From assembly GCA_963674945.2 (NCBI GenBank), contig CAXXWQ010000004.1, positions 32,001-96,000 on the forward strand: DNA of 64,000 nucleotides, written 5' to 3'. This stretch comes from an uncultured Desulfosarcina sp. Lineage in GTDB: Bacteria > Desulfobacterota > Desulfobacteria > Desulfobacterales > Desulfosarcinaceae. This document shows, piece after piece, positions 39,901-56,465 of the stretch (position 1 is its first letter; each line of letters begins with the position of its first letter). Made by a program: the position numbers and the translations under genes. The notes beneath the pieces were generated by a model. It worked only from the letters and a program-made list of their open reading frames with translations, ran no database searches and was not told the origin of the DNA.

Positions 39901-41334
39901 TCAAATTTTCTTGTACCTGCGGCAAGCTCGACAATCGCTCAACGCAGGTCCAATGATGGTGCCGATGGCAAGGGCACTGGCCGGTGCGATGACAACCAGA
40001 AGCGGGACCAGGTCGTCTTCCATCCATTGCCCTGTCAGGCCGTATAAAATTACCACACGGTAGGCAAGAAAGATGGACCAGGAAAAGACGATTCCGGCAG
40101 GTCCGGCGGCAAACGGGAGAAATGCGACCATATATAAGACATACCAGGGATGAAGCGTCGGCGTCAAAAATAGAAATGCCATGGCAGACAGGTAAAAACA
40201 CTTAGATATCTCTTGCATTCGGAAAAGAGAAGACGAATGGTCTGTTTTACAATGACGAACATAAATGATGACCAACGCGGTAACAAAGACGACGACAATG
40301 ACAAGGCGTGCCGCAACGCCCGATCCTGTCGCCACCCTCAGCCATCGGAAGAGGAACCCTGAAAACTCCCAGTTGGCAGCATATATGAATAAGGTATGAA
40401 AAGATGTTCGCACTTCCGGCCAGAAAAGGACGAACATTGCTGTTGAACTGATCAGAAATCCGAACACCATGTGCTTCCTGCTGCCTGAACCGGTTATCAG
40501 CAGAATTCCCGGCAAAAAAATCAGAGGGATCCATTTGGTTAACACCGCCAGGGAAAGAAAGATTCCCGCGGCACACCCCGGTAGCCACGCCCAATTGGAT
40601 ACAAAAATACCCCATGGTTTCCTTTTCGACCGATATACGGTGGGTTGGCTGGGTGCTTCATTGGAGAGCAGAATAAGAAGGGTCACGAGTAAAAAGAAAA
40701 TTGCCGCCGCGTCGACATGGCCGGATGCGGCAACTTCAATAACCGGCAGGGGATGCCAGGCATAAAGGATGGCGTTGGCGCGTGGCAGGCGAATCTTGTC
40801 GAGTATCCCGATAATAACAACACAACTGGATAGGTCAACCATGACAAGGCATAATTTCATTCCGGTAACATTGCCGATGAATGCACCAACGGCAAACACG
40901 AACTGTGCCGCAGGAGGATAAATGGTAAAAAGTTCCGCGTGATTGATCCGGCTGATGAGCAAAGCCATTGCCCGATTGTCGGTCAGCATTTCAGCGGGAG
41001 GGGCCGCATAGGGGTTGTGACCATCGAGAAACATCAGGCCGTCGAACAGATAGCGGTATATATCATCGGACAGCTCCGGTGCGCGAAATAAGAACAGGAA
41101 GCGCACGGTGGCGGCGATAAGAAGAATAAAACCGGCGGACCATTCAATTTGAATCCGCTGGCTGAGAAACAACGCCAGCGAAATAAGAATGATAATGACG
41201 GCGCTCACGGCAACAAGCTCCGGCACAAAATTTCGCAGATCAGGCAGTAACGCCAACAGTAGATATAAAAGGAAAATAACGAGGGGGAGGCTTTTAATAA
41301 CGAGTTGATTCCGGAATCGAAGGAAATTCGTCAT
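39901..41334 (-). CDS. GT-C membrane glycosyltransferase (GT87-like)
   Basis: LSDDIYRYLFDG, NPY, TIYPP, YAWHPL, SGHVD, LHPWY; polytopic. Confidence 0.78.
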   Translation of the reverse strand: MTNFLRFRNQLVIKSLPLVIFLLYLLLALLPDLRNFVPELVAVSAVIIILISLALFLSQRIQIEWSAGFILLIAATVRFLFLFRAPELSDDIYRYLFDGLMFLDGHNPYAAPPAEMLTDNRAMALLISRINHAELFTIYPPAAQFVFAVGAFIGNVTGMKLCLVMVDLSSCVVIIGILDKIRLPRANAILYAWHPLPVIEVAASGHVDAAAIFFLLVTLLILLSNEAPSQPTVYRSKRKPWGIFVSNWAWLPGCAAGIFLSLAVLTKWIPLIFLPGILLITGSGSRKHMVFGFLISSTAMFVLFWPEVRTSFHTLFIYAANWEFSGFLFRWLRVATGSGVAARLVIVVVFVTALVIIYVRHCKTDHSSSLFRMQEISKCFYLSAMAFLFLTPTLHPWYVLYMVAFLPFAAGPAGIVFSWSIFLAYRVVILYGLTGQWMEDDLVPLLVVIAPASALAIGTIIGPALSDCRACRRYKKI

Positions 41335-41342
41335 TGTCAATC

Positions 41343-42242
41343 TTAATTTGCATAAAAATTCTTTACGCCATGTAGAACATGATAATTGATGGCTTGCCTG
41401 GGGCACCGGTCGACACATAGCCCGCAATTATCGCATAATGCCCAATTAAATTCTGATGGATTGCTTTTTAGTAAACTCGGATCAAGCCCCACGGGGCATA
41501 TTTTTGCACATTCTCTGCATTGAATGCATTTTTCGTTTTCAAGACCGATTCTTACGATGCGCCCCCTTCCAAGAAGGGAAAGACCTCCCCCGGAAGGACA
41601 GAAATACCTGCACCATCCGCGTCGAAGCGCAAATAGATCCAGTAACAATACGAGTGTTAATAATCCTGCACCCGCAATGCTGAGGCGATGATGACTAAAC
41701 AGGTTGATCAATTCACGTCCCAAGGCATGAGGAGGATCGAAGACAGAAATTAAAGCCATTTTCCCAAAAAAACCGACGGCCAGAAGCCCCCCTAAGGCGA
41801 TAAAACGAAAATCCTTTATTTCCAAGGCCTTTTTCCAGACAGCACCTCTCCACCGATCGGGTATCTTCATCAGCAGTTCGAGCAAAAATCCCATGGGACA
41901 AAGCCATGAACAGAACACGCGGCCAAACAAAATCGTAATTCCCAGAGGAAGCAATGCCGCTATGAAAAAAGGCATAATCACTCTTCTATATGACGACACG
42001 GATTCTATAAAGGCAATTGGATGACAAATAAAAAACCCATTGATGGATAAACACCATGTGTCGCCACTTATCGGGAAAATTGTTGGTGGCGGCAGATGTC
42101 CCATGACGATGGACGACGGTGACCAATCAGAAGGATTTTGAGAGAAAAAAGGAACAGCGATAATCGTCAGCAGCATCAGAAGCTGAGTCGTTCGCCTGAT
42201 ATGCGTTATTGTGAGGCCTTTCTTTTTCCTTCTATTTTTCAC
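41343..42242 (-). CDS. NapH/MauN-type membrane ferredoxin
   Basis: GRVFCSWLCPMG, RGWCRYFCPSG and two CxxCxxCxxxCP; GTG start at 42242 overlaps the upstream stop (GTGA). Confidence 0.85.
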   Translation of the reverse strand: MKNRRKKKGLTITHIRRTTQLLMLLTIIAVPFFSQNPSDWSPSSIVMGHLPPPTIFPISGDTWCLSINGFFICHPIAFIESVSSYRRVIMPFFIAALLPLGITILFGRVFCSWLCPMGFLLELLMKIPDRWRGAVWKKALEIKDFRFIALGGLLAVGFFGKMALISVFDPPHALGRELINLFSHHRLSIAGAGLLTLVLLLDLFALRRGWCRYFCPSGGGLSLLGRGRIVRIGLENEKCIQCRECAKICPVGLDPSLLKSNPSEFNWALCDNCGLCVDRCPRQAINYHVLHGVKNFYAN

Positions 42243-42979
42243 TTTTGTTGTTTTCTTTTTATGACGGCAACCGCTGGAAGTGTGGATGTAACAGATCGTT
42301 TGTCGAGGAGTTTTTTGACAAATCCGCCATATCGTTTCTCGTAATAGCCGGATCCGTCTTCTAATGCCGCCGTATCTTCTCTTACGGGACAGATGAAGGT
42401 ACAAACCCCGCATCCGATACAATAGGAAGCATCAATATATGGCGCAAGGTCCCCAATCCCTCCTTCCGGCGGATTTCTCAATAATGCCTTGTCTTTCATG
42501 GGGCAATTAAAGTAGCATTCACCGCAGAATCCAAACTGCCAAGCCACGCATATTTTGCTGTCCAGATCAGCTACCCCGATTTTCAGGTCGTCGGAAAGAT
42601 TTTCGAGTGTTTCTCTATCGTTTCTGATCAGCTTCAGTGCGCCGGTGGGACATGCTTCGCCGCAGCGAAGAAAACGCCCCAGTGTTTTGTTCTCACCATC
42701 TTTCGATACTTCCCGGCATAGGTAGCAGGGTGTCTGCAACGGATCAATAAAAGGCGTATGCACGAGAGCACCGTGTGTTATGTCCAACAAGCGAATGCTG
42801 TCAAAAGGACAAGCCTCGACACACTTGCCGCACCGTATGCATCTTTCCAAAAAGTCGTGGCTCGCTCCGGGAGGTCGTAACACTTCGCAAGCCCCTTTTT
42901 TCGGAATGAAAGCAGCAAACCCGATGATGCCGGTCTGAATCAAAAAGGTTCTCCTGCTTATCACGGGGCGCTTCATCAT
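42239..42979 (-). CDS. NapG/MauM-type Tat-exported polyferredoxin
   Basis: SRRTFL Tat motif, LRPPGA, CIRCGKCVEACP and further 4Fe-4S motifs. Confidence 0.85.
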   Translation of the reverse strand: MMKRPVISRRTFLIQTGIIGFAAFIPKKGACEVLRPPGASHDFLERCIRCGKCVEACPFDSIRLLDITHGALVHTPFIDPLQTPCYLCREVSKDGENKTLGRFLRCGEACPTGALKLIRNDRETLENLSDDLKIGVADLDSKICVAWQFGFCGECYFNCPMKDKALLRNPPEGGIGDLAPYIDASYCIGCGVCTFICPVREDTAALEDGSGYYEKRYGGFVKKLLDKRSVTSTLPAVAVIKRKQQK

Positions 42980-43028
42980 TTGTACTTCACTTACTTTCCG
43001 GGCGTTGCGAAACATCGTCATGGGGTAT

Positions 43029-43069
43029 ATTCCGAATTCACCGCTGATCCAATGCGGTGAATTCGGAAT
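43029..43069. terminator. Intra-operon 16-bp perfect hairpin
   Basis: ATTCCGAATTCACCGC / GCGGTGAATTCGGAAT directly downstream of the receptor stop; no clear U tract. Confidence 0.6.
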
Positions 43070-43085
43070 TAGGGGATGGGACCAG

Positions 43086-45200
43086 TTAGAAAGTGTATTT
43101 TATCTGAGCCCCGATCGTCTGTTTGGGCATGGGATACCCGTACACTTCCTGGTAGTTTTCACCAAAGAGGTTGTTAACATAAACCAAAAGTTTGGCCTTG
43201 TCTGATAAAAACGTATATTGCATCCCGACATCGGTAATAAAATAGCTATCCATGTCGTACCCGCCTTCACTCTTTCGGACACCAACATAACGCATATCAC
43301 ATGTCGCCATGAGATCTTTCATCAAGTCGTACCGAACACCGAGATTTGCCTTGTGTTTCGGTGGGACATCCACCCAAAACGAATCCGGCAGATCGGTTTC
43401 ATCGACTTTGTTTTCAAGATAGGTGTAGTTGCCGAAGATATTGATTGTATCAAACCTTGCGTCAAACTCAAACTCCATGCCATAAAAACCAACGCTATCG
43501 ATATTATAGGCAAACGCATTTGGATTATAGGCACTCGGCCTGTCGAGGGCGACATAATCGGAGACGTCCGAGTAGTAGACCACAAATCGAACATCGATGT
43601 TTTCCCTGATACGATGATACACCCCAGTGTCATAATGCCAGCTTGACTCATATTCCAATTTTTGCTGCAGCGCACCCGTGCGCATGTAGTAAGCCTCATC
43701 TCAACATCCCGGAACATGATAGTCCCTGTTTACCGATATGAATACGCTTGTCGCGGGCTGTAACTGGTGTGTCATGGTCACCTTCGGCAACCAAAATGTG
43801 TCGGTATAATGGTGCCTGTATTTAGGCACATCGGGATCGAGGGTATAGGGATAGGTTCGCTGATCGATCACGGACATCCGCAACCCGGTTTTCAGCGTCC
43901 ACTTGGGTAAAAACGCCCACACATCTTCGAAATATCCCGAGTTTATTTCGAATATTTTCGGCATCTCCTCCGCCCCGGTTTTTTTGTAGGAATATCCGAC
44001 ATCCAATGAATTGTTTTCCCAAAGATCGGCGTTCAGCTCAATGCCGCCGCCGATATGCTTTTCGATATACCCATCTCCACCACTAAAACTTTGTTCCTTG
44101 TTGCCGTCGTCGTCTAAGGTAATGTACCAACTGTTCTCCTCTCCCTCGGTATTGTAAAAATGCAACTTTAATAGAAATTTTTTAATTTGCTGCTCATAGG
44201 CGACATCGTAATGGTCCGCACTCTTTTCCTTATAATTCTTTTGCCCCGGGTCTTCGGGATAGGAAATGGAAGCCATTTTCAAGGTGTCCGCGTCTTTGGT
44301 CACCGTCGGATAATCGGGATCGTAATCGTCACGCGATGGATCGTTTACAACCGGATTATCCCGGGTAAACTCGGATCCTTTGTAGGACAGTGTAAGAAGG
44401 CCCTCAAAAGGAAACCGATAGCTCAACCTGGCAGAATAATTGTCTGAATCCCATTCGTTGTTTCTGAGGTAGCCGTCCGACTCCTGATGTCCGTATGATA
44501 AAAAATAGGTCAGGTCGCCGACACCGCCGTTCATCGTCGCATTTCCGGAAAAGGCCTGGGGATTATCATACTCGGGGATGATGGTATAATCTCCTCGAAC
44601 CGTGATCTTTGGTTTTAAAGTATCTTGTTTCTCCCCTTTTTTCATGATGATGTTAATGACGCCGCCTGCTGAATTCTCATACTTGGCTGAGGCGCCGCCC
44701 CGTATTATTTCTATTTTCTCGATGTCCGACAGGTTCAAACTCGACCAATCGATGGGCGTCATCGCCTTTCCGGACGAGCCGGTCACCGGCCTACCGTCGA
44801 TGGCAACCGTATAACGACTGTCCTCGAAACCGCGAAACATAATCACCTGTTGTGGATCGGGAATCGTTGAGCTGCGCATGACATCGATTCCCGCCATGTT
44901 CATCAGAATGTCCTCAACGCGATCGACAGAGCCGCTTTTCACATATTTATCGACGTCAACGATTGTGCTTGTGGGCGTGAATTTGATGGCGCCGCCATGG
45001 AAGGCGTGCACAAAGACATCCCCTAATTCGACAGGTTCTTCATCTTCCACCAGATCTACCGGTTCCTCAACTTCCGGCGGGCATGTCGGGCAGTCAGCAT
45101 TACCACTATTCGAGGTCTGGGACAACGCGACATTCGGTAGTAGCAGCAGTTTCACACAGCATCCGACCAGAAACAACTTCAACGTCCTTTTCAAAAACAT
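43086..45200 (-). CDS. TonB-dependent receptor, putative selenoprotein (Cys-Sec), 704 aa with UGA read-through at 43701-43703
   Basis: ORFs 43701-45200 (signal, plug, IEKIEIIRGG) and 43086-43685 (barrel end VNNLF...IKYTF) are in one frame separated by one TGA: HVPGC-TGA-DEAYYMRTG. Confidence 0.85.
43665..43689 (-). promoter_or_regulatory. SECIS-like hairpin of the TonB-dependent receptor
   Basis: mRNA CUACA(U)GCGCA-CGGG-UGCGC-UGCAG; bulged U and G-rich loop beginning 22 nt after the UGA. Confidence 0.65.
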
Positions 45201-45240
45201 CCTTCTTTTCCTTTCTTCACCATGGTTGTTCTGTTACAAA

Positions 45241-47421
45241 TCACACTTTTTCAATATTGCACAAAAATCCCCTGTAAGCGGGAAATGCGCTGATGGGATC
45301 CAATACCCCATCGTCTGTCAGTTCATTGGCACTGCTTTTATCCCAGCCGTGGGTCATCGCCACTTGGCCTTTGCCTAATCCTTTGATCAAGATCGCCTTT
45401 GCTGTTATGCTGCCCCTTGGAGAAATAATTCTCACCGCATCCCCATTTGAAATTCCTTTCGACGCAGCATCCTCCGGATTGATTTCGACCATCGGCTCAG
45501 GAGATTTTTTTAGAAGCGACGGGATATTATGATATTGAGAATGGTAAAAATATTTAATTCTACCACCGGTGTTCATTATGAAGGGATATGCTGACTGCAA
45601 TTCTTTGTTCCCGTAATTCTCATATGGATTCACGTAGACAGGCAGCGGGTCATACCCGAATTTTTTGAGTGTCGGGGATGAGAATTCTATTTTTTTCGAA
45701 GGCGTGTCAAGGCCTCTTTTTTCATATTTTCTGTATTGCGTAGTCTCGGATGGATGAACACCATTGAAGTTTTTCCTCAATTGGGCCGCAGTCAGATTCA
45801 CCGGTTTTAAATGCTCGTCGATCGCTTCATCGAGATTTTGCCATGGAAATTCTTTCGTGTATCCCATTGTTTTTGCCAATTCGAACCAGAATTTCCATGT
45901 GGGCCATGCTTTTCCCTGCTCCGGTATGACTTTGGGGGTCATAAAAATACTGTTTCGCGCCTTAAAGCCGTCACACTCCATAAATGTCGCCGCCGGCAAC
46001 ACGATATCGGCCATTTTTGCTGTCTCGGTCATAAAAAGATCCATGACGACCATGAGATCAAGCTTTTTAAAAGCTTCTCGCTGATGGGACACATTGGGCC
46101 CGGTCGAAAGGGGATTGCCGCCGACCACCAAAAGTGCTTTGATCGGATAAGGCTTGCCGGTCAAGATCGTCTCCGGCAATTTGTTTGCGCTTACCATATC
46201 ATGGTATTTCCACAAGAGTGGATAGCTCTCTTCCGTGATTCCGGGAACAGCCCTGTTTCTTATTTCTTTCAGATCCATGGGGGCAAGCTCGGTTTTTCGT
46301 TCCGACATCATGTTGCCCCCCTTAATATCGATATTGCCCGTAAGCGCCTGCAGAAGCTGTATGGAACGAATGGTCTGTACACCGTTTAGATGGAGTTCAA
46401 GGGCATTTCCCGTTGAAATACAGGCAGGACCGCTAGTGGCATATTCTACCGCAAATTTTTGAATATCGTCGGCCGGAATGCCTGTAATGGCCGCCGCTTT
46501 TTCGACCGGATACGCAGAAGCGAGTTTTTTGTATTCATCAAACCCGAGTCCATAGCTTTTCACGAACTTTTCGGCATACAGTTTCTTTTGGATAATGATA
46601 TTTGCCACGGCAAGGGCAAGTGCCCCGTCCGTTCCGGGTTTCGGACTGAGGTGACGATCCGCGACTCTGGTCATGGCGCCGGGTCGTGGATCGATGCATA
46701 CGAGTTTTGCACCCGATTCTTTCGCAGGAAGAACCCGGTTTAACCACGTCGGAATACTCGAGGTGGCAGGATTACAACCCCACTGGACGATATAGCGGGA
46801 ATTCTCATAATCCGACCATAGGGAGCCGATACTATACTTTTTGGCAACGGCACCTGCGACATGACACTGGCTGCCGCATCCCGTGAAATTGGGGGAGCCA
46901 TACACATCGCAAAAACGCCTTATAAAGTTCCTGTAGAAACCATCTCGCACCTGACTCACACCATAATGGAATACGACGGATTCAGGTCCCGGGGATGATT
47001 TGTATTCACCGAGCTTTTCTGCAATCTCTGCGAGAGCTTCATCCCAGCCGATCTCGACAAATTTGCCACCCTTTCTTTTCAGAGGACTCAATATCCTGTC
47101 CGGTGCATGGACAATCTCCGGGGTCGCAAGCCCCATATCACATAAAAATCCTTTGGATATCGGATCCTCTTCCCATGGCCCAACCGCCTTGATGATGTTA
47201 TCCTTAACATACGCCTTCATACCGCAGTCTTTGCCGCAAAGACCGCATCTTGTTATAATTTCTTTGGTTCCCGCCAATTGATTCTTGCTATTCTGACTCG
47301 CGGAAAGAACGCCTGCTCCACTAAACGCTACAGAAATGCCCGCAATTTCGAGAAACTTTAAAAATTCCCGCCGTGTGTATCCATTTGATGCCGTTTTCGG
47401 AACGATGATTTTCTTTTGCAA
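45241..47421 (-). CDS. Tat-exported Mo/W-bisPGD oxidoreductase (DMSO reductase superfamily), substrate unknown
   Basis: TRREFLK Tat motif, CGLCGKDC...C 4Fe-4S, candidate Cys ligand GSQCH, PGTDGALAL, TETAKMADIVLPA, VEINPEDA. Confidence 0.9.
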   Translation of the reverse strand: MQKKIIVPKTASNGYTRREFLKFLEIAGISVAFSGAGVLSASQNSKNQLAGTKEIITRCGLCGKDCGMKAYVKDNIIKAVGPWEEDPISKGFLCDMGLATPEIVHAPDRILSPLKRKGGKFVEIGWDEALAEIAEKLGEYKSSPGPESVVFHYGVSQVRDGFYRNFIRRFCDVYGSPNFTGCGSQCHVAGAVAKKYSIGSLWSDYENSRYIVQWGCNPATSSIPTWLNRVLPAKESGAKLVCIDPRPGAMTRVADRHLSPKPGTDGALALAVANIIIQKKLYAEKFVKSYGLGFDEYKKLASAYPVEKAAAITGIPADDIQKFAVEYATSGPACISTGNALELHLNGVQTIRSIQLLQALTGNIDIKGGNMMSERKTELAPMDLKEIRNRAVPGITEESYPLLWKYHDMVSANKLPETILTGKPYPIKALLVVGGNPLSTGPNVSHQREAFKKLDLMVVMDLFMTETAKMADIVLPAATFMECDGFKARNSIFMTPKVIPEQGKAWPTWKFWFELAKTMGYTKEFPWQNLDEAIDEHLKPVNLTAAQLRKNFNGVHPSETTQYRKYEKRGLDTPSKKIEFSSPTLKKFGYDPLPVYVNPYENYGNKELQSAYPFIMNTGGRIKYFYHSQYHNIPSLLKKSPEPMVEINPEDAASKGISNGDAVRIISPRGSITAKAILIKGLGKGQVAMTHGWDKSSANELTDDGVLDPISAFPAYRGFLCNIEKV

Positions 47422-47438
47422 TGCTGTGTCTCCTCATC

Positions 47439-47846: not shown

Positions 47847-47867
47847 AAAAAGTTCCTATATACATGA

Positions 47868-48482: not shown

Positions 48483-48497
48483 TGTTTTTTCCTTACG

Positions 48498-50327
48498 TTA
48501 TGATTTACTCTGGTTCGGACGTTCAGATGTTTGTTGATTTTGCGGTTCTTCCACAATATCCGCGATACCATCGAAGTCCATATCCCTTGACCGCTTGATT
48601 AATGCCTCGGCATCATCATAATATTCCCACAGATCGGTTTTGCCGTCCGCGTTGGTATCCTCTTCCAGCTTATTCAACATGCCTTGGCGATAAAAATACC
48701 AGATGTCGGGCCGACCATCGCCGTTCTTGTCATGCTCGGCATGGGTGGCTTTTTCATTTGTGTCGTAATACCAAGTGATATTCAGTCGACCGGTGTCGCC
48801 TTCATCCGCCTGGCTTTTAATCAGTTTGCCGGCGTCGCTGTAATACTCTCTTTGATCGATCGCGCCGTTACTGTCCTCGTCTATCTCTTTGACGACAAGG
48901 GCTTTGTTCTTATAGAAGGATCGAAGCTCTGGGTTCTCATCCTGATCCGTGTCGATTTCCATCACCATGGACCACTCCGGCTTGTCGAACCACTGGGTCG
49001 TTTCGAAATGCGAATCAAAATCCGCATCTTTTATGATCCTTTGTTTCTTGCCCCCGACATAGTAGATTTTCAGATCGATGGCGCCGTCGTTGTTTTCATC
49101 TCTCTCCGATCGTACCAACAGGTCTTTTGCATAGTAATGAAAGGTATCGAAGGTTTCATTAAAATCCGTATCGCTTTCGGCCTTTTCGCGTTGTTCCTTG
49201 CCATTGAAATAGATGATGGTATCGATCTTTTTATCGCCGTTGTCATCTTTGGTCTGGCGGATCATCTTGTTTTTTTCAAACCAGGAAACTGTTTCAAGAT
49301 AGGTATCGTTGTTTTCATCAAAGGAGACTTTGACCGGCTCACCATTTTTAAAAATGCGGATTCGATCGATGCTGCCGTCAAACTTGGAGTCCTCTTTGAT
49401 CAGCGAAGGATTTTGATCGTTGTCAAATGTGACAAAATAATCCGGTTCATCATCGTAATTGGTATCTTTTTCCTGGGTAACGGGTTTGCCGTCTGCAAAT
49501 TTGGTAAACACATCGAACCGGCCGTCCAGGTTGGTGTCCTTCTCCTGTCGTTTTGGCAGCTCTTTTTCGAAAAAGGTCACGGTATCGAACCGGCCGTCCA
49601 GGTCCACATCTTTGCGCTGTTCTTTGATGGTACCGGCTTCATACAAACAGAAGGTTTCCATCTTTCCATCTTTGTCGTGATCGTGGTCGCTCTCTTTGGG
49701 CCTGGCCTGATCATCGAACCGTACAAATCTCTCCAGCCGTCCATCCCCGTCATCGTCTACCCTTCTTTCAACGGGCATATCGTTTTTATAGGTCGTCCAG
49801 ATGTTCACCTCGCCGTCGCCGTCCGTATCTTTGGTACTGGAGAGAACAACGCCTTCCTTGTAATTGAACACCGTGTCAAACCGCTGATCGGATGTGGTGT
49901 CCTTTTTGACAACCAGGGGCCTTTCCATGGCATCGAAAGTGATCATTTGGGTCATATGCCCCTGTGGATCGAACCGTTCATGGCGAATGCGCTTTTCCTT
50001 TTCAAAATAGTCTTTGGTATCGATGTGGCGATCATGATCCAGATCCCGCTCAACCCGCGTCAGCACTTCATTTTCATAATACTGAAAACTATCCATCACC
50101 TCATCGCCATTGCTGTCGATTTCCAGTTTCTCTACCATCCGCTTGCTGTTGAAATGAATGATCCGATCGATTTTCCCGTCCTCATCCATGTCTTTTTCGA
50201 TCCTGCTCGAATCTGCCGATAACGGACCGGGTAGCCACATCGAAAGGACCATGAGAAAGGCAATAACCACCAAAGAGATAATCTTTGGATGCGATTTTTT
50301 GTTTTCAATAGACTTCATTACATCCAC
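48498..50327 (-). CDS. Exported protein built of ~22 DxDxDG-like repeats
   Basis: Signal peptide, then ~22-23-aa units such as DMDEDGKID, DVDLDGRFD, DKNGDGRPD, each followed by a short beta-strand. Confidence 0.8.
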   Translation of the reverse strand: MDVMKSIENKKSHPKIISLVVIAFLMVLSMWLPGPLSADSSRIEKDMDEDGKIDRIIHFNSKRMVEKLEIDSNGDEVMDSFQYYENEVLTRVERDLDHDRHIDTKDYFEKEKRIRHERFDPQGHMTQMITFDAMERPLVVKKDTTSDQRFDTVFNYKEGVVLSSTKDTDGDGEVNIWTTYKNDMPVERRVDDDGDGRLERFVRFDDQARPKESDHDHDKDGKMETFCLYEAGTIKEQRKDVDLDGRFDTVTFFEKELPKRQEKDTNLDGRFDVFTKFADGKPVTQEKDTNYDDEPDYFVTFDNDQNPSLIKEDSKFDGSIDRIRIFKNGEPVKVSFDENNDTYLETVSWFEKNKMIRQTKDDNGDKKIDTIIYFNGKEQREKAESDTDFNETFDTFHYYAKDLLVRSERDENNDGAIDLKIYYVGGKKQRIIKDADFDSHFETTQWFDKPEWSMVMEIDTDQDENPELRSFYKNKALVVKEIDEDSNGAIDQREYYSDAGKLIKSQADEGDTGRLNITWYYDTNEKATHAEHDKNGDGRPDIWYFYRQGMLNKLEEDTNADGKTDLWEYYDDAEALIKRSRDMDFDGIADIVEEPQNQQTSERPNQSKS

Positions 50328-50344
50328 CTTGCTTTCCGAAAGCT

Positions 50345-51046
50345 TCAGGTTGTCTCGAAAATAATATTCAATTCCATGGGGATATCTTTTTTAAAAAATC
50401 GGTGCGGAGGTCTTGGAAACGGGGCCGCTCCCTTTACCGCCTCGATGGCGGCCTGGTTGAGTATGGCATGGGGACACGATTGAACGACCTGAACGTTGCG
50501 CACCCCTCCCTGGCGGGTCACCACAAACCGCACGGTGATACGCCCCTCTTGTTGCATACTCTTGGCCGATTCCGGATATTTTTTGCTCGATTCGATTTTG
50601 AGTATCACCATCTCATAGTAGCTTTTTGCAGTGGTGAATGCAGCCGATGTGTCCAGGATTTCGCCGATCTGGTAATTACTCCGGCCGGCATTCAAATCGG
50701 ACGGCAGGTCCGGAACGGAAATCTGGGCCATTAGATTCTTGGAAACGGAGTTGTCAACCGGGTCGATTTTCATGGGCTGGATACGCGGAACACGCATGCG
50801 TTTCACACGGACCTGTTTGACATCTTCGGGTTGCTCGAGCTGTTTGGGACGCATCACCGGTCGCGGAATGGTCCTTGCAAAAGATTTTGAAAGATCTTGC
50901 ATGGAAAGCTCGATATAGCTGATGGCCTGGGATTGGTAGATACCCGCCACATGCAGCAATATGAAAATATGAAGTACAATGGATACCATAATCAGGTATC
51001 GCAGTAGCTTATTGGGACCTTGATTCGGGTGTTGTAATGCTTCCAT
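50345..51046 (-). CDS. tonB: Energy transducer TonB
   Basis: TM helix with SIVLH, C-terminal YPESAKSMQQEGRITVRF...LNQAAIEAV..AAPFP. Confidence 0.88.
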   Translation of the reverse strand: MEALQHPNQGPNKLLRYLIMVSIVLHIFILLHVAGIYQSQAISYIELSMQDLSKSFARTIPRPVMRPKQLEQPEDVKQVRVKRMRVPRIQPMKIDPVDNSVSKNLMAQISVPDLPSDLNAGRSNYQIGEILDTSAAFTTAKSYYEMVILKIESSKKYPESAKSMQQEGRITVRFVVTRQGGVRNVQVVQSCPHAILNQAAIEAVKGAAPFPRPPHRFFKKDIPMELNIIFETT

Positions 51047-51210
51047 AGTAAAAATCGTCCGGGCGGTTATAATGTTACGTAATCACTAACGCCGGCAACC
51101 GGCCGGCCCCACTTACCTGTTCTCGACCCTTTTGCTAGAAAAGAATCACTTGTGAAAATCTCTCACATCCACTGTTGTGAAAGCATCCAAGATGCAACCG
51201 TGTCCCCTGT

Positions 51211-52218
51211 CTATGTATTCCCTCTTCTATTTTCTTCCGGCGACTCGTGTACCGGCAAATAATTGTAATCAACAATCTTTTCGATGGGGACACTTTTAGG
51301 CAACTTACCGATATTGATCATGATTTCCTGCTGTTTGTAAATTTGCCGTTCCGGTTCCCTTCCATCTTCAAATTCTCGGAGCGCGGACTTCATCGCCACT
51401 TTCATCTCCACTCCGGTGTATTTGGGAATCCATCTTCTCGCACTCATTTCATTATGTTTGATATAGTCAAAAGCCTTGACCAGCCCACGAAGAAAAGCCC
51501 TGACTTTTTGCGGATGCTCTTTCAAGTACTTGTCCGTAAAGAACAGTCCGCTGAATATGTATCCTGGAATCGCATCGTTGAACGATACCAACAGTCGGCT
51601 CGCACCATGCATCTCCAGCATGGTCGCGGTTGGATCTCATGCCAGAATGACATCAACTCCCTTGGACTTTAAGGCCGCCTCATGTTTCATGGAGTCATCC
51701 AGCTTGATCCCTTTAATGGCCCGTATGTCGTCCTTTGTCAGCCCGGCCATTTTCAATGTCTCCGACAGAATCATGGCCGTTGTAATGGACCCGGATTCAG
51801 CCACCCGGCTCCCCCTTAAATCGTTTACCGAATGGATCTCGCTTTTTTGATCCACGTGCAGTCCGCACCGTGTACCGGTGTGGGCATGCCCCAGCCAGGC
51901 CACTATCTTTATGGGGATATTTCTAAGACCCGCATGAAAGACCCCGCCCAGATCGAGTTGGCCGGCATCGATATCCCCATGAAGGGCGGTGGCAATGATA
52001 TTGTGCTCACCCACCAGGCGGATCAGGTGTACATCCAACCCTTCCTGCTTCCAAAGGCCCTGCTCCAGGCCGACGTACAGTGGCAGATCGTCAATACTGC
52101 GGCTGTACGTGATGGTCATTTCCTCCAAGGCTGGTTCCGCGGCTGTGCCATGGTTCACCATAAAAAAGGAAAGAGCGGTTACGGTTGTCAATACGGTTAA
52201 CACGATCCGTCTGTTCAT
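51211..52218 (-). CDS. SsuA/THI5-like ABC substrate-binding protein, putative selenoprotein, 335 aa with UGA read-through at 51637-51639
   Basis: ORFs 51637-52218 and 51211-51621 are in one frame separated by one TGA: GVDVILA-TGA-DPTATMLE; the halves together give a normal-sized binding protein. Confidence 0.85.
51601..51628 (-). promoter_or_regulatory. SECIS-like hairpin of the ABC binding protein
   Basis: mRNA CGC(G)ACCAUGC-UGGAGAU-GCAUGGU-GCG; loop GG 20 nt after the UGA. Confidence 0.7.
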
Positions 52219-52376
52219 AATGTCTCTTTTTTAGTGTCCGTCCGGAAATCGGCAAATTTGGTCGAGATCAAGGCGCGTGAAAATTTTTCCGCAGGCATAT
52301 GGTTGATATTCCGAGGATAAAATTTTGAGCGCAACGCCGATATCGGGCAAATTGGCCATTTCTGGATGGACACTTT

Positions 52377-53174
52377 TTAGTTGCCTCCGGCCAGGGATGT
52401 CTCTGTATGCCATACGAGAATATGCCCCTGGATAAAGCGTGCCAGACGATCCAGTGAGAACCCCATGAGAGAAATCACGAGGATCCCGGCAAACATTCTG
52501 TCCGTCGCAAATGTCCGTTGGGCATCGATCACCAGGAAACCGATTCCGGAATCCGCCGCCAGCATTTCAACGCCGACGATGGCCAGCATGGACATGGCCG
52601 TTGAAATACGCATGCCGGTGATAATCATCGGAAGCGCCGAAGGAATGAGAACCTTTGTCCACATCTGCAAACCGTCGGCCCCCAGTGCCCGCGCCGCCTG
52701 AATCAAACGGACATCGACGCCTTTGATGCCGGCAATCGTATTGAGCACGATGGGGAAAAAGCATGCCTTGACAATGATGGCGATCTTCGAGCCGTTTCCG
52801 ATACCGAACCACACAAACATCACCGGAACGAGGGCAAAGGTTGAAATGGGACGAATCAGCTCAATCAACGGATCGAAAATATTTTCGAATAGTCTCGACC
52901 AGGCCACCAGAATACCGATACTCAGTCCCATCGCCGCAGCAATCAGATATCCGGCCACAGCCCGCAAAATGCTGACCCCGATATGGGGAAACACTTCTCC
53001 GGATATGGTCATGTCATAAAGCGCTGCCAGTATGGAACTGGGGGCCGGGAAAAAAAATGGATCGATCAGGCCGCTTTGACCGATCACTTCGCACACGATC
53101 AGAATGAAAAGTGGCGAAATCATTTTTTTCCAGCTGCCCTCCATTATTCCTGCGAATCCTGTATCTCTTCCCAA
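52377..53174 (-). CDS. ABC transporter permease (SsuC/TauC type)
   Basis: FPAPS, IRPIS, WFGIG, EAA loop QAARALGA, EMLAADSGIG; start may be a later ATG. Confidence 0.9.
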   Translation of the reverse strand: MGRDTGFAGIMEGSWKKMISPLFILIVCEVIGQSGLIDPFFFPAPSSILAALYDMTISGEVFPHIGVSILRAVAGYLIAAAMGLSIGILVAWSRLFENIFDPLIELIRPISTFALVPVMFVWFGIGNGSKIAIIVKACFFPIVLNTIAGIKGVDVRLIQAARALGADGLQMWTKVLIPSALPMIITGMRISTAMSMLAIVGVEMLAADSGIGFLVIDAQRTFATDRMFAGILVISLMGFSLDRLARFIQGHILVWHTETSLAGGN

Positions 53175-53914
53175 ATCATTCCCCGCAGAGCCTGTTCATA
53201 CATGACGAATTGCGGTGTCGTCAGGTCGGCTCTTGTTCGCGGCCTCGGGATATCGATGGTCAGTGTGGCCATGATCCGGCCCGGCCGCCTGCTCATCACG
53301 ACGACGCGATCGGAAAGATAAATCGCTTCACCGATACTGTGGGTGACAAACAACACCGTACATTTCGTCTCTTGCCATATCCGCAACAGCTCTTGCTGAA
53401 GCAATTCCCGCGTCAGGGCGTCCAGCGCCCCGAAGGGTTCATCCATGAGCATCACTTTGGGCTCATTGGCCAGGGCCCTGGCAATGGCGACCCGCTGTTT
53501 CATCCCACCGCTGAGTTCATGGGGATAACGGTTTTCAAACTTGTTCAATCCTACCAGATCGATATATTTTGCGCTGATGTCGCGCCGTTTTGTTTTCGCG
53601 ACCCCGCGTACTTCCGGGCCGAACTCCACATTGCCTCTCACCGTTTTCCAGGGGAACAAAAGGTACTCCTGAAAAACGATGGCCCTTTTGGGGTCGGGAC
53701 CGTTGACTGAATGACCGTCAATCATGATCCTGCCCCTCGTCGCCTTCTCAAGCCCGGCCACTAGGAGCAAGAAGGTTGATTTGCCGCATCCGCTGGGACC
53801 CAGTATGGAGACAAACTCCTTTTCCCGGACCTGCAGGTTGAACTCATCGATGGCCACAACCTGCCTGTTTTTACAATCAGAGAAAACCTTGCATACGCCT
53901 TGGGCCCGGACCAT
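53144..53914 (-). CDS. ABC transporter ATPase (SsuB/TauB type)
   Basis: GPSGCGKST, VFQEYLLFPW, LSGGMKQR, MDEPFGALDALTR. Confidence 0.93.
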   Translation of the reverse strand: MVRAQGVCKVFSDCKNRQVVAIDEFNLQVREKEFVSILGPSGCGKSTFLLLVAGLEKATRGRIMIDGHSVNGPDPKRAIVFQEYLLFPWKTVRGNVEFGPEVRGVAKTKRRDISAKYIDLVGLNKFENRYPHELSGGMKQRVAIARALANEPKVMLMDEPFGALDALTRELLQQELLRIWQETKCTVLFVTHSIGEAIYLSDRVVVMSRRPGRIMATLTIDIPRPRTRADLTTPQFVMYEQALRGMIWEEIQDSQE

Positions 53915-55075
53915 TTACCTTGTCGATCCGGCCATGATCTGTTCAATAAATCCCTCGATGCGGACTCTGAGCTGCCCCACATCCGAATGGGAGTAATCCG
54001 TCACCACATGTAGGTAAGGAAGGCCATGTTTTTCTTTCACTACTTCTCCCACACGGTAGGACTCGATATTGAACGCATGGCAGGACTGCCAGGTCAGGTC
54101 GATGACACCCTGGATGTTGTATTCGGTGATCAGTCGGTCGATCTGTTCGAATCGCGTGTCGTTGGGTGTCATACAGGCGCAGGTTACCTTTAAATAGCGC
54201 CGCGCGATGCCTTCAATGGGATCATCACCCGGATCGATCCGATCATCCAGCCGCGTGACCCCACCGCACCCTTCCTGACACACCACTACGCCACCGCTCT
54301 CTTCCACCAGGCGCAGCACCTTGTCACACCCCAGCGAGTTTCCAAGGCCGGTCCATAAGATTCGCGGCCTGTTTTCGCTGCAGGCGAACTGCTTTTTACG
54401 GATCCTGTCTTGAAGCGTTTCCAGCATTGATTCCAATTTTCTAAGGTATTGTTTGCGGTCTACGGTGTACGACATGCCTGTGGAAAGGGCCACCAGATCC
54501 AGACCCATAATGGGCACTGGATTGGACTTCCTGCATTGATGGATCCGTTTCAATAATGCTCTCTCCACGTTTCCCTGTTCGATGGCATCCATCAATGCAT
54601 CGTCCGTAATCCGGGTATCCAATTGGTCTTCAAGAAAGGATTTGAGCTTTCTCACCTCATCGATCCAGTAAACCAGTGCCCCCGCATTTTCCGGCTTTTG
54701 CGGCAGATCCATCACATGCATGGGTTTTTCACGGCCCAACAGCTCGTACATTTTCTTGCGGCCGTCGCATGTGGTCTCGCCAACGAGACAATCAGCAAGA
54801 GGAAAAATCGGGCAGGTATTGTTGATGGCCCGTCCATAGGTGGCTTTCACCATGGGGCACTGGTCGACCGGAAGTACTCGTTCCGCCGCATCGATGGGTC
54901 CTGGTGTCGTTCCGCAAAGCCCGACGGTGATGGCCCCGGCGGCCCATGCCACCTCTCGCGGAAAATAGGAGCACAGGCAACCCACCACTTTTCTCCCCTC
55001 GTCTTTCGCCATCTCCAGGTCCAGTGCGAAGGAGGTTTTTACTTCATCGATTTTTTTGGTGTTTCTCAAATCCAC
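53915..55075 (-). CDS. Double-cubane [8Fe-9S] cluster protein (DCCP)-like reductase
   Basis: Cys pattern of DCCP: VGCLC, GLCG, CPMVKATYG, CP, GETTCDGRKKMYE, EGCGG, CACMTPN, CHAFNIES, TDYS..DVGQL. Confidence 0.82.
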   Translation of the reverse strand: MDLRNTKKIDEVKTSFALDLEMAKDEGRKVVGCLCSYFPREVAWAAGAITVGLCGTTPGPIDAAERVLPVDQCPMVKATYGRAINNTCPIFPLADCLVGETTCDGRKKMYELLGREKPMHVMDLPQKPENAGALVYWIDEVRKLKSFLEDQLDTRITDDALMDAIEQGNVERALLKRIHQCRKSNPVPIMGLDLVALSTGMSYTVDRKQYLRKLESMLETLQDRIRKKQFACSENRPRILWTGLGNSLGCDKVLRLVEESGGVVVCQEGCGGVTRLDDRIDPGDDPIEGIARRYLKVTCACMTPNDTRFEQIDRLITEYNIQGVIDLTWQSCHAFNIESYRVGEVVKEKHGLPYLHVVTDYSHSDVGQLRVRIEGFIEQIMAGSTR

Positions 55076-55094
55076 GACATCTATCCTCGAGCAC

Positions 55095-55898
55095 CTAACG
55101 GCATTTCAGATACACTTGCTCTTTTGCAAAGACCGCAGCCCCCAAGGCCCCGGTGATCTGCGCATCCGCGTTAATGGGGATGAATCCGAACCCAAAGTAT
55201 TTTTCCAGGGCCAAGCGCAAACCCTGGTTTTTGGCACCCCCCCCTACAAAAGCAACATTTCTAAATGGATTTAAACGTTTGGCCATATTTCCAACTCGCC
55301 GGGCAATACTTTGGTGTAAGCCGGCGGCAATATCGTTTTTCGTGTTGCCCGCGGCCAGCAGGGAAATCACTTCCGATTCCGCAAACACGATGCACGTGCT
55401 GTTGATTTGGCAAGGCGTACCGGTTTCCATGGACATATGGCTGAAATGATCCATTGGTACTTCCAGTGAACGCGCCATCATTTCCAGAAACCGTCCGGTT
55501 CCGGCTGCACATCGGTCATTCATGACAAAATCGGCGACACTTCCATCCTTGTTCAATGTGATGGCCTTAGCGTCCTGACCGCCGATGTCGATCAGTGCTT
55601 CCACATCGGGATTCAGATAATGCACCCCCTTGGCATGGCATGAAATCTCCGTAAGGGCTTTATCCGCAAAAGGAAGAGAAATCCTACCATAACCTGTTGC
55701 CACGATACGTTTCACATCCTTTTGTTTGCGATTGGCATGATCCAGCACCTTTTGGAAAACAGTTTCACCGGCCTTTTGCGGTTCTGCACCAGTTCGCAAG
55801 ATTTGTGCGGCGACAATTCCCGCATCGTCGATGACAACCGATTTTGCCGTCAAAGAGCCGACATCAACCCCGGCATACAGTCCATTTTCTACCGTCAT
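55095..55898 (-). CDS. ASKHA ATPase activator (DCCP reductase-like)
   Basis: GVDVGS, ATGYGR, DIGGQD, MNDRCAAGTGRF, STCIVFAESE; adjacent to the DCCP-like gene. Confidence 0.9.
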   Translation of the reverse strand: MTVENGLYAGVDVGSLTAKSVVIDDAGIVAAQILRTGAEPQKAGETVFQKVLDHANRKQKDVKRIVATGYGRISLPFADKALTEISCHAKGVHYLNPDVEALIDIGGQDAKAITLNKDGSVADFVMNDRCAAGTGRFLEMMARSLEVPMDHFSHMSMETGTPCQINSTCIVFAESEVISLLAAGNTKNDIAAGLHQSIARRVGNMAKRLNPFRNVAFVGGGAKNQGLRLALEKYFGFGFIPINADAQITGALGAAVFAKEQVYLKCR

Positions 55899-56347
55899 CG
55901 TTCACATTCCCAAAAAGACCTGATACTTGCCGGATGCTTCATTTTAGTAAAAACCGGCTCAAATGGTGAGAAAAGACGCACCGCACCATCCGTAAAACCT
56001 GATGAGCCAATGAGACGTTGGATCACCAAGTCGCCGAGGAAGAATGCTTGTGAAAGTTACTGGGATAGAAAGGTGAAATACCTAACAATCGGAGGTCCCG
56101 TCACAACAGCTATTCCAATGGCAACCACCCGGGCAGCCAGCACCGAGTCTCTCATGTAAATCCTGCATGACGGTAAAGTGCGAACATAAGTGATATTGAA
56201 TATCATATTTCCGTTAAAAAGTGGCTTCTCATAGTATAAAGGGCGAAAAAATACAATGAGATTTTACCTATACGTCCGACAACTGAGATTGAATATCCAA
56301 ATACCACTATGAGAACAAAAATCCTCAAGGAATTATGCAACAATTTT

Positions 56348-56367: not shown

Positions 56368-56465
56368 CTATTTTTATTGATAAATTCTACCTATCAGCAA
56401 TACATGACAAACGATAAGATCATTCTGTTTTCACCATGTTGGCAGCGTTCTCACTTTCCCCCATA

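Follow-up and report, generated by a model that had tools for sequence, protein, structure and literature searches.

A modular cassette of putative selenoprotein import genes and a double-cubane cluster protein that may serve selenium scavenging

The 64,000-nt stretch of DNA analysed here (the window) contains 14 ORFs in one direction at positions 39901-55898, as the first-pass annotation had stated; all are on the minus strand. With the start codons chosen in our analysis, the intergenic gaps across the cluster range from -4 to 164 bp. Family scans agreed with the earlier labels for the activase, the double-cubane cluster protein (DCCP), the ABC transporter, TonB/ExbB/ExbD, the molybdoenzyme, the receptor and NapGH, the exception being the polytopic membrane protein labelled GT-C (39901-41331), which had no Pfam or NCBIfam match. 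The upstream end is formed by an ATP-dependent activase of the DCCP-reductase type (55095-55898; TIGR00241 above cut-off), a DCCP of a clade tied to the ABC transporter (53915-55075; NF040772, 465 against a cut-off of 350), a NitT/TauT-type ABC ATPase (53144-53914) and a permease without in-frame TGA (52377-53147). The best matches of the last two were SaoA and SaoP, respectively, both below cut-off. The 158-bp gap between the permease and binding-protein genes contains a palindromic dispersed repeat (52271-52380, no strand assigned), which has 73 BLAST matches in the genome and very high depth in metagenome contigs and is not specific to this system. The periplasmic binding protein (51211-52218; 335 aa) is followed by TonB (50345-51046; family scans), an exported Asp-rich protein with DxDxDG-like repeats (48498-50318; no Pfam match), ExbB (47868-48482; PF01618) and ExbD (47439-47846; PF02472). 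The remaining genes encode a Tat-exported Mo/W-bisPGD enzyme (45241-47421), a TonB-dependent receptor (43086-45200), a NapG/MauM-like polyferredoxin (42239-43021) and a NapH/MauN-like quinol dehydrogenase subunit of the membrane (41343-42242; start codon inferred), the last two below cut-off. Upstream of the cluster and also on the minus strand lie genes for a MoeA-like molybdopterin-binding protein (56466-57494; PF00994), which was present in 0/16 well-flanked loci, and, beyond the span annotated earlier, a two-domain ExtH/SseA-like rhodanese lipoprotein (57603-58673; below cut-offs).

The import machinery and the double-cubane reductase are tightly and reciprocally linked. Among non-self loci with enough flank, the permease was found in 42/42, the ATPase in 36/37, the DCCP in 30/31 and the activase in 20/24. 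In the reverse test, all 10 non-self DCCPs with at least 60% identity were followed by this ABC ATPase, which bears out the earlier claim that import is coupled to this reductase. Two of six more distant DCCPs also preceded the same ATPase; the transporter's partners thus come from more than one DCCP clade. The cysteines of the cassette DCCP aligned with those of the solved Carboxydothermus hydrogenoformans protein (PDB 7yyl/6eno, E 2e-80; PMC7317905), which likewise has a cognate activase. However, the cassette DCCPs form a separate clade (29 rows; a quick tree gave SH-aLRT 100) with a TGLG(N/S)SLGC signature, and the window protein lacks most of the N-terminal extension, its alignment with the solved chain beginning at residue 61 of the latter; the accessible text of PMC7317905 suggests that a missing extension leaves room for a larger substrate. 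The cassette DCCP is also bound to an importer, unlike the C. hydrogenoformans protein as that text describes it.

The binding-protein gene has an in-frame TGA at 51637-51639 (codon 194, A-U-D-P). Fifty-seven of 61 homolog matches ended one residue before this codon (56/60 excluding the window's own fragment), and the four full-length homologs among the 60 all had Cys there; TGA was present in every fetched locus covering the position. Fold prediction placed a SECIS-like hairpin with a CCATGC/GCATGG stem and a G in the loop at 51601-51627 (minus strand), and the synonymous sites of the stem were invariant in 48/48 loci, compared with 0/106 other conserved positions. The structure model (pLDDT 81.4) had an SsuA/TauA/Thi5 fold, and the protein also contains Cys118. 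The protein thus likely represents an uncurated selenoprotein family.

In the receptor gene, the in-frame TGA is located at 43701-43703 (codon 500, P-G-C-U-D), next to Cys499. Of the 18 non-self loci left after de-duplication, 17 have TGA at this codon and one has TGC. A codon-level SECIS constraint was looked for across the receptor loci and not found, and the hairpin was weak. Contigs of metagenome run X1, probably the source sample, spanned both TGA codons with no alternative letter. These data suggest that both UGA codons are likely, above chance, read as selenocysteine, as the earlier annotation had proposed for the two substrate-recognition proteins. The receptor scored 972 against a cut-off of 700 for NF049946, 'TonB-dependent receptor, CU motif-type', and has an N-terminal CxxC ahead of the presumed TonB box. 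The published example, the Sec TonB receptor of deep-Sep (PMC12013277), is listed as the FCYXU type NF049945 in the accessible part of PMC13188914, whereas our receptor reached only 273 against the 825 required for that type. Our literature search found no paper assigning a gene context or substrate to a CU-type receptor. The Asp-rich repeat protein appears to be the receptor's companion, being found in 7/8 well-flanked receptor loci; its Atlas look-alikes were VCBS/DUF6802 proteins of low recognition.

Comparison of 16 well-flanked loci showed that the cluster is a modular set rather than one fixed 14-gene unit, contrary to the first-pass annotation. The binding protein, the ABC transporter and the DCCP nearly always occur together. 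The TonB arm was optional (receptor 8/16, TonB 7/16), and the Mo/W enzyme with NapGH was rarer still (3-4/16): NapG occurred in three loci, NapH in four, and the enzyme in three within 16 kb, plus genome G387 slightly past that limit. The GT-C gene, which forms the downstream flank, occurred in 0/16 and does not travel with the cassette; it lay once near a decayed cassette copy, on the opposite strand, and one low-depth metagenome contig joined 41139 to 57602, skipping the cassette. The Mo/W enzyme was below every named cut-off and belongs to an unnamed clade of its own (approximately 20 sequences, 57-80% identity) nearest to FdhF and acetylene hydratase (PDB 2e7z), its best solved matches (E ~1e-75). 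Its [4Fe-4S] motif and the Cys at the metal-ligand position (TGCGSQC) align with these enzymes; however, it has a Tat leader, and where the hydratase has Asp following its second cluster Cys, this enzyme has a Gly or Asn-type context (C-G-L-C-G).

This modularity raises the possibility that the ABC-DCCP core, the TonB arm and the Mo/W-NapGH set are two or three independent selenium-regulated modules that share a regulator and form no single relay. Gene order was shuffled between loci, four core-bearing genomes had no CU receptor above cut-off, and genome G466 (97% complete) had the Mo enzyme, receptor, NapGH and TonB arm and no binding-protein match at E<=1e-25. Nevertheless, the receptor shared a locus with the core in 19/47 loci, often as the gene immediately following that for the binding protein and in one case inserted between permease and binding protein, and three further genomes, representing two lineages, had all 13 genes together. 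We consider independent modules very improbable.

Our literature search turned up no description of this cluster, which agrees with the earlier view of an undescribed combination; that view needs qualifying, however, as the receptor family is already curated (NF049946) and the pairing of a double-cubane enzyme with a Sec-bearing ABC transporter of the NitT/TauT type is the theme already published for SAO. In the accessible text of Haft and Gwadz (10.1101/2022.07.06.499078), the double-cubane protein and activase are often adjacent to SAO (21/52 species), and SAO, a system of anaerobes, has Sec in its binding protein. Our Sec194 aligned with the conserved Cys/Sec position of SaoX (T-C-D-P). On the other hand, all window proteins fell below the SAO cut-offs, the binding protein was only 17-18% identical to SaoX and has its own Cys118 in place of the CC pair, the permease lacks Sec, and SaoL/C/T/D/E/B are missing from the cluster. 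The cassette adds the Sec receptor, TonB/ExbBD, the repeat protein and the Mo/W-NapGH module, and DCCP is a fixed member here versus a frequent neighbour as SAO is presented there. Judged on sequence, the cassette is SAO-like yet distinct from SAO.

Its SAO-like features allow a reading in which the cassette handles a soft metal or organometal(loid) such as Hg, methylmercury or organoarsenic: the Cys-Sec and Cys/Sec sites would be metal ligands, the double-cubane enzyme would reduce or dealkylate the imported compound, and the selenium links would reflect only the need for Sec. The Sec194-SaoX alignment, the SaoA and SaoP best matches and the N-terminal CxxC of the receptor are consistent with this, as is the interpretation of CU motifs as heavy-metal ligands in the text of Haft and Gwadz available to us. 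ArsP/SaoE-like efflux permeases, in ArsR-ArsP clusters, were near 2/50 loci. However, no MerB/SaoL-, SaoT-, SaoC- or efflux-type gene recurred among the clustered neighbours, and selenium-handling genes were more frequent than ArsP-type ones, being near 11/50 loci. We therefore regard metal handling as unlikely.

The selenium genes yedE, yedF, selD or selB were present in the fetched flank of 10/47 cassette loci and absent from that of the other 37, compared with 0/20 control NitT/TauT loci and 1.2% of 20-kb windows drawn at random from this genome, where related loci are not independent and the control genomes are unmatched for selenium use. In locus L146 the order is yedE, tusA-like, Se/S carrier, kinase-like, DCCP, ABC and Sec binding-protein genes, with LysR_Sec_metab divergent; LysR_Sec_metab immediately precedes DCCP in L043 and L047. 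YedE, YedF, DUF3343 and LysR_Se are candidate selenium genes (PMC5322559); they, HrsM (PMC11267900) and selC*/selB* (PMC5389517, PMC7609411) lie beside the cassette or have the same motif upstream. The accessible text of these papers names no importer of the cassette type, although an activase and 'hydroxyglutaryl-CoA dehydratase' genes already appear among the partners in the STRING table of the 2015 paper (PMC5322559). A Sec requirement for selenium scavenging would be a paradox that UGA-to-Cys back-up would ease; a cysS*-type gene for such back-up was searched for and not found. A second CysRS match was rejected as cysS* because it is a CysK fusion.

The LysR-like motif upstream of the cassettes is new in this analysis. 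The literature search returned no binding motif or regulon for bacterial LysR_Se. In the window it is a dyad abutting TTGAC, a -35-like word, at 58846-58875 (minus strand; 18.3 bits), 172 bp before the rhodanese gene, and is a candidate site for control of the cassette. The EM score was 415, versus 244-259 in five shuffles with fewer restarts. In leave-one-out scoring at >=12 bits, 15/22 upstream regions of relatives' cassettes were recovered and seven training regions failed, against 0/110 non-coding control stretches and 13/687 in this genome. When the matrix was trained on other genomes alone, with this one excluded, it gave 11 sites of at least 18 bits in this genome (7.08 Mb; null ~2.7). 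These included the window's site before the rhodanese gene and sites before a selC*-selB*-like pair (23.4 bits), the second DCCP (19.6 bits), a multi-rhodanese gene, a TtrBA-like operon and a PstS-type ABC gene; three of the 11 lay ahead of unrelated genes or within coding DNA. The third DCCP (16.3 bits) and yedE (13.2 bits) scored lower, and the motif was absent before selA, selB1, selC, selD and the LysR gene of this genome. In five other genomes, all with LysR_Sec_metab above cut-off, the consensus pattern matched 51 times versus 22 for a reversed control, with yedE, DCCP, ExtI-like porin and cystine-like ABC genes downstream. A TudS-related desulfidase also belongs to the motif regulon. 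We infer that the LysR protein binds the motif. The best score directly before the activase gene was -1.2 bits and the gap between this gene and the moeA-like gene is 567 bp; control of the cassette from the site at 58875 would therefore need read-through.

The motif counts against the metal reading, since it also precedes genes free of Sec codons, such as yedE and selB*, and it bears on two further readings. In the first, a sulfur compound (polysulfide, thiosulfate, disulfide or organosulfonate) would be imported for sulfur or energy metabolism, Sec merely accelerating thiol exchange. The modelled SsuA/TauA fold, PhsA as second-best NCBIfam match of the Mo/W enzyme (310 vs 694), and the rhodanese, TtrBA-like, cystine-like ABC and TudS-related members of the regulon fit this reading. 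It is nonetheless distinctly unlikely: the named relatives belong mostly to sulfate-reducer lineages, for which reduced sulfur would hardly be scarce enough for TonB uptake, and the selC*-selB*-like pair, yedE/yedF and LysR_Sec_metab are selenium-specific markers. In the second, the transporter would supply selenium for the DCCP's own cofactor, a Se-bridged 8Fe cluster raised as a formal possibility in the available text of Haft and Gwadz (10.1101/2022.07.06.499078), and the enzyme's substrate would be unrelated. DCCP-SelD co-occurrence is near-absolute, and all three DCCP genes here have the motif upstream or lie inside a motif-led stretch. However, co-regulation would be equally compatible with scavenging, a TonB/ABC system for one bridging atom would be a costly design, and the solved DCCP is reported with an 8Fe-9S cluster in the accessible part of PMC7317905; we rate this the least probable of the readings weighed.

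Instead, the way the genes are linked, the conservation of the UGA/Cys sites together with SECIS-type constraint on codons, the selenium neighbours and the shared motif point to a cassette that scavenges selenium and frees it reductively through the double-cubane enzyme; we give this reading about an even chance. The neighbours and the motif narrow the soft-ligand substrate guessed earlier toward selenium and away from heavy metal. A reduced or organic form (diselenide, methylselenide or polysulfide-bound Se) is more likely than a bare oxyanion. In approximately half of the loci, the vicinal Cys-Sec pair of a TonB receptor would capture the compound outside; selenol/thiol exchange is the probable mechanism and could select selenium from a large excess of sulfide. 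The compound would then be held between Cys118 and Sec194 of the binding protein and passed to the permease, and the activase-driven double-cubane enzyme would cleave a C-Se or Se-Se/Se-S bond in the cytoplasm, yielding selenide for SelD. Where present, the periplasmic Mo/W enzyme may adjust the oxidation state of the compound before import with electrons that NapGH would draw from the quinone pool, and the selenium-associated LysR may couple expression to selenium status by binding the motif. If so, the double-cubane enzyme family would gain its first natural job. Rhodaneses also flank related modules in genome G294, one of them with TGA at the catalytic Cys.

All 14 co-directional, mostly closely spaced ORFs that the first-pass annotation placed at window positions 39901..55898 were found on the minus strand; the gaps between them range from -4 to 164 bp. 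NCBIfam and Pfam agreed with its gene labels except for GT-C, which had no match. The activase scored above the curated cut-off of TIGR00241; the ABC subunits, binding protein, Mo/W enzyme, and NapG/NapH-like proteins were below every named NCBIfam cut-off. A scan for sigma-70 promoters and terminators gave chance-level counts (25 vs. 24.2; 25 vs. 21.7). No Rfam family was present in window 30000-64000, and therefore no riboswitch was available to name the substrate. The genome (G000; 7.08 Mb, 98.7% complete) carries selA, two selB genes, a Sec-containing selD, and two tRNAs with a UCA anticodon, tRNA-Sec among them.

The in-frame UGAs reported for the binding protein (codon 194) and the TonB receptor (codon 500) were confirmed: TGA was kept across relatives and the remaining homologues had Cys, and on these grounds a pseudogene or a sequencing error was rejected. 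For the binding protein we followed Haft and Gwadz, who call for at least 10 examples with TGA at the same site and 100% TGA. Codon 194 was TGA in every fetched locus that spans it (48 de-duplicated loci, including the window's own), and 57 of 61 database matches stopped exactly before it (56/60 without the window's own fragment), so that databases now store the family as truncated fragments. The other four matches were full length with Cys at this site, and homology ran past the codon. Cys118 was invariant in a 23-row alignment. Downstream of the UGA, SECIS-stem codons were fixed at synonymous sites (Leu CTG, 48/48; His CAT, 48/48), as was the third-base G of a variable stem codon (48/48); none of 106 other conserved positions reached 95% synonymous-site fixation in the same loci. 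Folding of three binding-protein genes revealed no compensatory changes in the SECIS element. Since TGA conservation, Cys homologues, and a hairpin with Sec machinery were all found, the latter including selA above its cut-off in 5/5 other carrier genomes tested, the binding protein is predicted to be a selenoprotein.

At the sequence level, it represents a new selenoprotein family that is small and distinct, with nine representatives, mostly fragments, at E<=1e-30 among 1.84 billion sequences. Ordinary NitT/TauT proteins shared about a third identity or less with it, and in 131 of them Cys was outside the eight commonest residues at both sites. The predicted model (pLDDT 81.4) has an SsuA/TauA/Thi5 fold.

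Gene linkage was counted at 47 non-self binding-protein loci, each gene being scored where the flank sufficed. Near-identical or re-fetched loci (L051, L054, L059, L027 or L055, L045, L035, L064, L066, L046, L047, L067, and L068) were dropped beforehand, as were L019, L022, L034, and L053 wherever a longer stretch of that region had been fetched and was used instead. The core was linked to the binding protein as follows: permease, 42/42; ATPase, 36/37; DCCP, 30/31; and activase, 20/24 loci. At the 16 loci with at least 5 kb on each side, the receptor was present at 8; the repeat protein, TonB, ExbB, and ExbD at 7 each; the Mo/W enzyme at 3 (a fourth lay just past the 16-kb limit); NapG at 3; and NapH at 4. 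GT-C and the moeA-like gene were found at none of the 16 and were rejected as conserved members. Thus, the 14 genes do not form one fixed unit, as the first-pass annotation had proposed; the arms separate between loci, with the Mo/W enzyme at 3/16 and GT-C at 0/16. All 13 genes except GT-C nevertheless occur together, in other orders, in three other genomes (G387, G746, and that of L023), G746 and L023 belonging to one genus. Genome G466 has the order Mo enzyme-receptor-NapGH-TonB-repeat-ExbBD with no binding-protein match, and four core-bearing genomes have no CU receptor above the cut-off. The spread is patchy, the binding protein being present in 2/61 close relatives, this genome included. 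One low-depth contig of metagenome run X1, probably the source sample, joins 41139 to 57602, which places GT-C beside the rhodanese gene with the cassette absent. The G294 copy of GT-C is on the opposite strand, surrounded by rhodanese and VTT genes; GT-C is therefore a flank gene. It is very unlikely that the cassette consists of independent, co-regulated modules; the separating arms speak for this reading and the 13-gene loci against it. The cassette is real, modular, and uncharacterised; a literature search that took in few subscription journals found no paper on the cluster or on the upstream motif described below, in keeping with the earlier view that the combination is not a described system.

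At eleven loci (L030, L031, L032, L033, L037, L039, L042, L043, L044, L045, and L063) a conserved exported protein of ~155 aa directly follows the binding protein; it had no Pfam or NCBIfam match, and its loci are without the TonB arm.

The DCCP scored 465 against NF040772 (cut-off 350), its cognate activase is present, and Cys 35, 54, 73, 103, 270, 301, and 332 align with those of 7yyl. A regular expression taken literally from the published 7-Cys spacing gave no match, the spacings being off by 1-2 residues. On this sequence evidence, the protein is assigned to the NF040772 double-cubane family. A role as a 2-hydroxyacyl-CoA dehydratase or benzoyl-CoA reductase was rejected, all such families being below cut-off. 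In the reverse test, the ABC ATPase followed 10/10 non-self DCCPs with at least 60% identity and 2/6 at 42-46%, and both of the latter loci carry a Sec binding protein. The ABC-linked DCCPs formed one clade (29 rows) in a quick tree search that raised a long-branch warning. Double-cubane enzymes carry a nitrogenase-like, ATP-driven metal cluster. With the binding protein fixed beside one DCCP clade, the substrate question can be approached by screening ligands against a single soluble protein. The accessible text of PMC7317905 gives DCCP no known physiological substrate, and that of PMC10418091 notes DCCP genes in methyl-selenium-linked clusters. That the importer supplies selenium for the DCCP cofactor is regarded as very unlikely.

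Two further observations concern neighbouring genes. A protein of 170-190 aa with no family match is encoded repeatedly in between or next to activase/DCCP genes, and also close to the selC*-like locus (L022, L025, L057, L063, L146, and G000:C3:574925). Outside the cassette, window 23683-27741 (minus strand) holds a separate HadB/HadC-like pair of the 2-hydroxyacyl-CoA dehydratase or benzoyl-CoA reductase type, with two activase-like genes, all below cut-offs.

The receptor scored 972 against NF049946 (TonB_dep_CU; cut-off 700), its CU motif being P-G-C-U-D. P-G-C-TGA was retained in 17 of 18 non-self receptor loci; the other had TGC, and this Cys-Cys form was also without the N-terminal CxxC. 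Only a weak hairpin (about -8 kcal/mol) follows the UGA, and no codon constraint was seen. Alignment to CirA alone placed the CU pair directly after the barrel strand ending F-K-A-P, presumably in an extracellular loop above the plug. CU receptors above the cut-off were present in 4/401 genomes of the phylum. For the repeat protein, the Atlas search gave only low-recognition look-alikes. As far as their accessible text goes, deep-Sep reported Sec TonB receptors (PMC12013277) and a 2026 review lists the FCYXU type only (PMC13188914). Related receptors of the P-C-P-U type adjoin tetrapyrrole methyltransferase-like genes at L009-L014, unlike the CU type, and several with an internal TGA were seen in genome G009.

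The Mo/W enzyme, a Tat-type protein with the metal-ligand motif TGCGSQC, falls in an unnamed clade of ~20 sequences (57-80% identity). Among solved structures, it is closest to an FdhF and to acetylene hydratase. Acetylene hydratase is a cytoplasmic enzyme in which the Asp by the second cluster Cys is catalytic; the cassette enzyme has Gly at this position and a twin-arginine leader, and its identification as an acetylene hydratase was rejected. Most simply, the enzyme and its NapGH-like partners form a periplasmic oxidoreductase tied to the quinone pool. In a fragment of the Mo/W enzyme at L025:12175-12444, TGA replaces the third [4Fe-4S] cysteine; this gene appears broken, and the codon may mark either Sec or decay.

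The closest system is SAO (10.1101/2022.07.06.499078), which, according to its accessible text, has the theme of a Sec transporter with a double-cubane protein in common with the cassette. In alignments with two true SaoX proteins (17-18% identity), Sec194 fell on their conserved T-C-D-P Cys; the SaoX CC pair is missing from the cassette binding protein. The cassette proteins scored 54 against 300 for SaoX, 268 against 360 for SaoA, and 169 against 295 for SaoP, and SaoX was above cut-off nowhere in G000. SaoL, SaoC, SaoT, SaoD, and SaoE had no match among the 24 window proteins scanned, and the permease alignments had no internal TGA, unlike the SAO permease with its gate Sec. SAO membership is excluded by these cut-offs, the missing genes, and the lack of a permease Sec. 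SAO-like handling of soft metals is rather unlikely; ArsP-type permeases were found at 2/50 loci.

Genes for selenium metabolism (yedE, yedF, selD, or selB) were present within the fetched flanks of 10/47 loci, compared with 0/20 control NitT/TauT loci; when 20-kb windows of G000 were drawn at random, 1.2% contained one. The yedF query was taken from L031 and confirmed as TIGR03527. Adding three loci and further markers brought the count to 11/50, while the 20 controls gave one weak (26%) selD-like match. We claim no p-value because the loci are related. At L146, yedE, tusA-like, Se/S-carrier, and kinase-like genes run into the DCCP-ABC-Sec binding protein genes, with LysR_Sec_metab divergent; the same regulator directly precedes DCCP in L043 and L047.

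An EM search on 22 upstream regions, all from other genomes, yielded the motif AT(C/T/A)G(A/G)(A/T)ATTA(T/C)C(A/T)AT followed by TTGAC (score 415 vs. 244-259 in five shuffles, run with fewer restarts). It was resolved by EM alone, exact palindrome counts upstream being barely above shuffles. In leave-one-out scoring without close kin, 15/22 regions reached at least 12 bits, as did 0/110 control non-coding stretches and 13/687 from G000. In G000, ~26 identical 17.6-bit matches were discarded as one repeated element beside a transposase. Sites of at least 18 bits numbered 11, against a null of about 2.7 (one block-shuffled contig). They lie ahead of a multi-rhodanese lipoprotein, the selC*-selB*-like pair, a three-gene stretch that includes TtrB/TtrA-like genes, a PstS-type ABC system, the second DCCP, a VTT-domain gene (window 34892), a peroxiredoxin (window 27999), and the rhodanese gene (window 58875); three of the 11 look unrelated. 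The 58875 site, before the rhodanese gene that precedes the cassette, lies three genes upstream of DCCP, with a 567-bp gap between. The third DCCP (16.3 bits) and yedE (13.2 bits) scored lower, and the motif was absent before selA, selB1, selC, selD, and the LysR gene of G000.

In five other genomes, the consensus pattern gave 51 matches, versus 22 for the reversed control. Among 30 matches fetched, several lay before yedE, other-clade DCCPs, VTT-rhodanese, PstS-type and cystine-like ABC genes, an ExtI-like porin, and related Mo enzymes; others preceded unrelated genes or none. LysR_Sec_metab was above cut-off in G000 and 5/5 of those genomes. A LysR box has the form T-N11-A, and the motif dyad resembles such a box; from this dyad only, we infer that LysR_Sec_metab may bind the motif. 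With the motif, control by selenium can be tested directly, and the genes behind it can be listed as candidates for selenium acquisition.

Little is known of the way in which anaerobes acquire trace selenium where sulfide is plentiful. The Sec-armed importer fixed to DCCP, the selenium-gene flanks, and the apparent co-regulation suggest, with about an even chance of being right, that the cassette serves selenium acquisition. A selenium compound would be captured via Cys/Sec exchange and imported through the ABC transporter, and DCCP would release selenide reductively, driven by ATP, for SelD. A sulfur substrate, with which the rhodanese and cystine-like ABC genes behind the motif would fit, is unlikely, given the yedE and yedF flanks. 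With somewhat less than an even chance, selenium acquisition may proceed by a dedicated high-affinity pathway in which Sec would do the capturing at two consecutive steps of transport and ATP-driven reductive selenide release would be the physiological role of DCCPs. The pathway would belong to a LysR_Se regulon not described before, by which a UGA-to-Cys back-up tRNA would be induced as well. The candidate regulon and the new selenoprotein family make the DCCP substrate question testable. Spending Sec to obtain selenium is a paradox and a weak point of the selenium-acquisition reading. The back-up tRNA could ease it; the selC* tRNA-Cys(UCA) features in the accessible text of PMC5389517 were all found (UCA anticodon, A1:U72, U73, and a selB copy directly downstream). 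A cysS* without the anticodon-binding domain was not found beside it or elsewhere in G000, where the two CysRS matches were an ordinary enzyme and a CysK fusion.

At this selC*-like locus (G000:C3:567978-572793), yedE, tusA-like, Se/S-carrier-like, and kinase-like genes face the second selB, which is preceded by the tRNA; the motif occurs on both sides (13.2 and 23.4 bits). The CysK-CysRS fusion is encoded by a 763-aa frame at G000:C1:208745-211033. L046 also holds a tRNA-selB pair like that of the selC*-like locus, close to a truncated copy of the binding protein. In multi-domain rhodaneses adjoining related modules (L101:16708-18546 and L103), the last domain has TGA in place of its catalytic Cys (F-Y-U-G-T-G-W; F-Y-stop-G-G-G-W), a position held by Cys in the window's rhodanese.

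Several other motif-led or neighbouring stretches were noted. At G000:C4:606168-613360, the motif leads into the second DCCP, after which come a NitT/TauT binding protein of Tat type and a permease; judged by eye, nearby genes resemble a corrinoid methyltransferase pair, and the arrangement is reminiscent of type 1 mlp clusters. At G000:C4:1049375-1054140 (L153), likewise behind the motif, an exported protein without an NCBIfam match precedes TtrB-like and TtrA-like genes, a candidate selenate/tetrathionate-type reductase. Window 31016-34892 (minus strand) has the motif (22.3 bits) before a VTT/CCG-domain protein, which resembles NF045663 'diclust_near_Sec' below cut-off, an unlabelled membrane protein, and a rhodanese; in G294 (L102/L103) the same trio flanks a decayed receptor-NapGH-Mo enzyme copy. 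At window 27999-30472 (plus strand), the motif (19.1 bits) precedes genes for a peroxiredoxin and for a fusion of an MtaA-like methyltransferase with a corrinoid domain. A transposase-like ORF whose end is repeated ~26 times in the genome occupies window 35193-36601, and GT2 genes at window 37351-39851 (plus strand), one of them near TIGR04283 (161 vs. 182), converge on GT-C.
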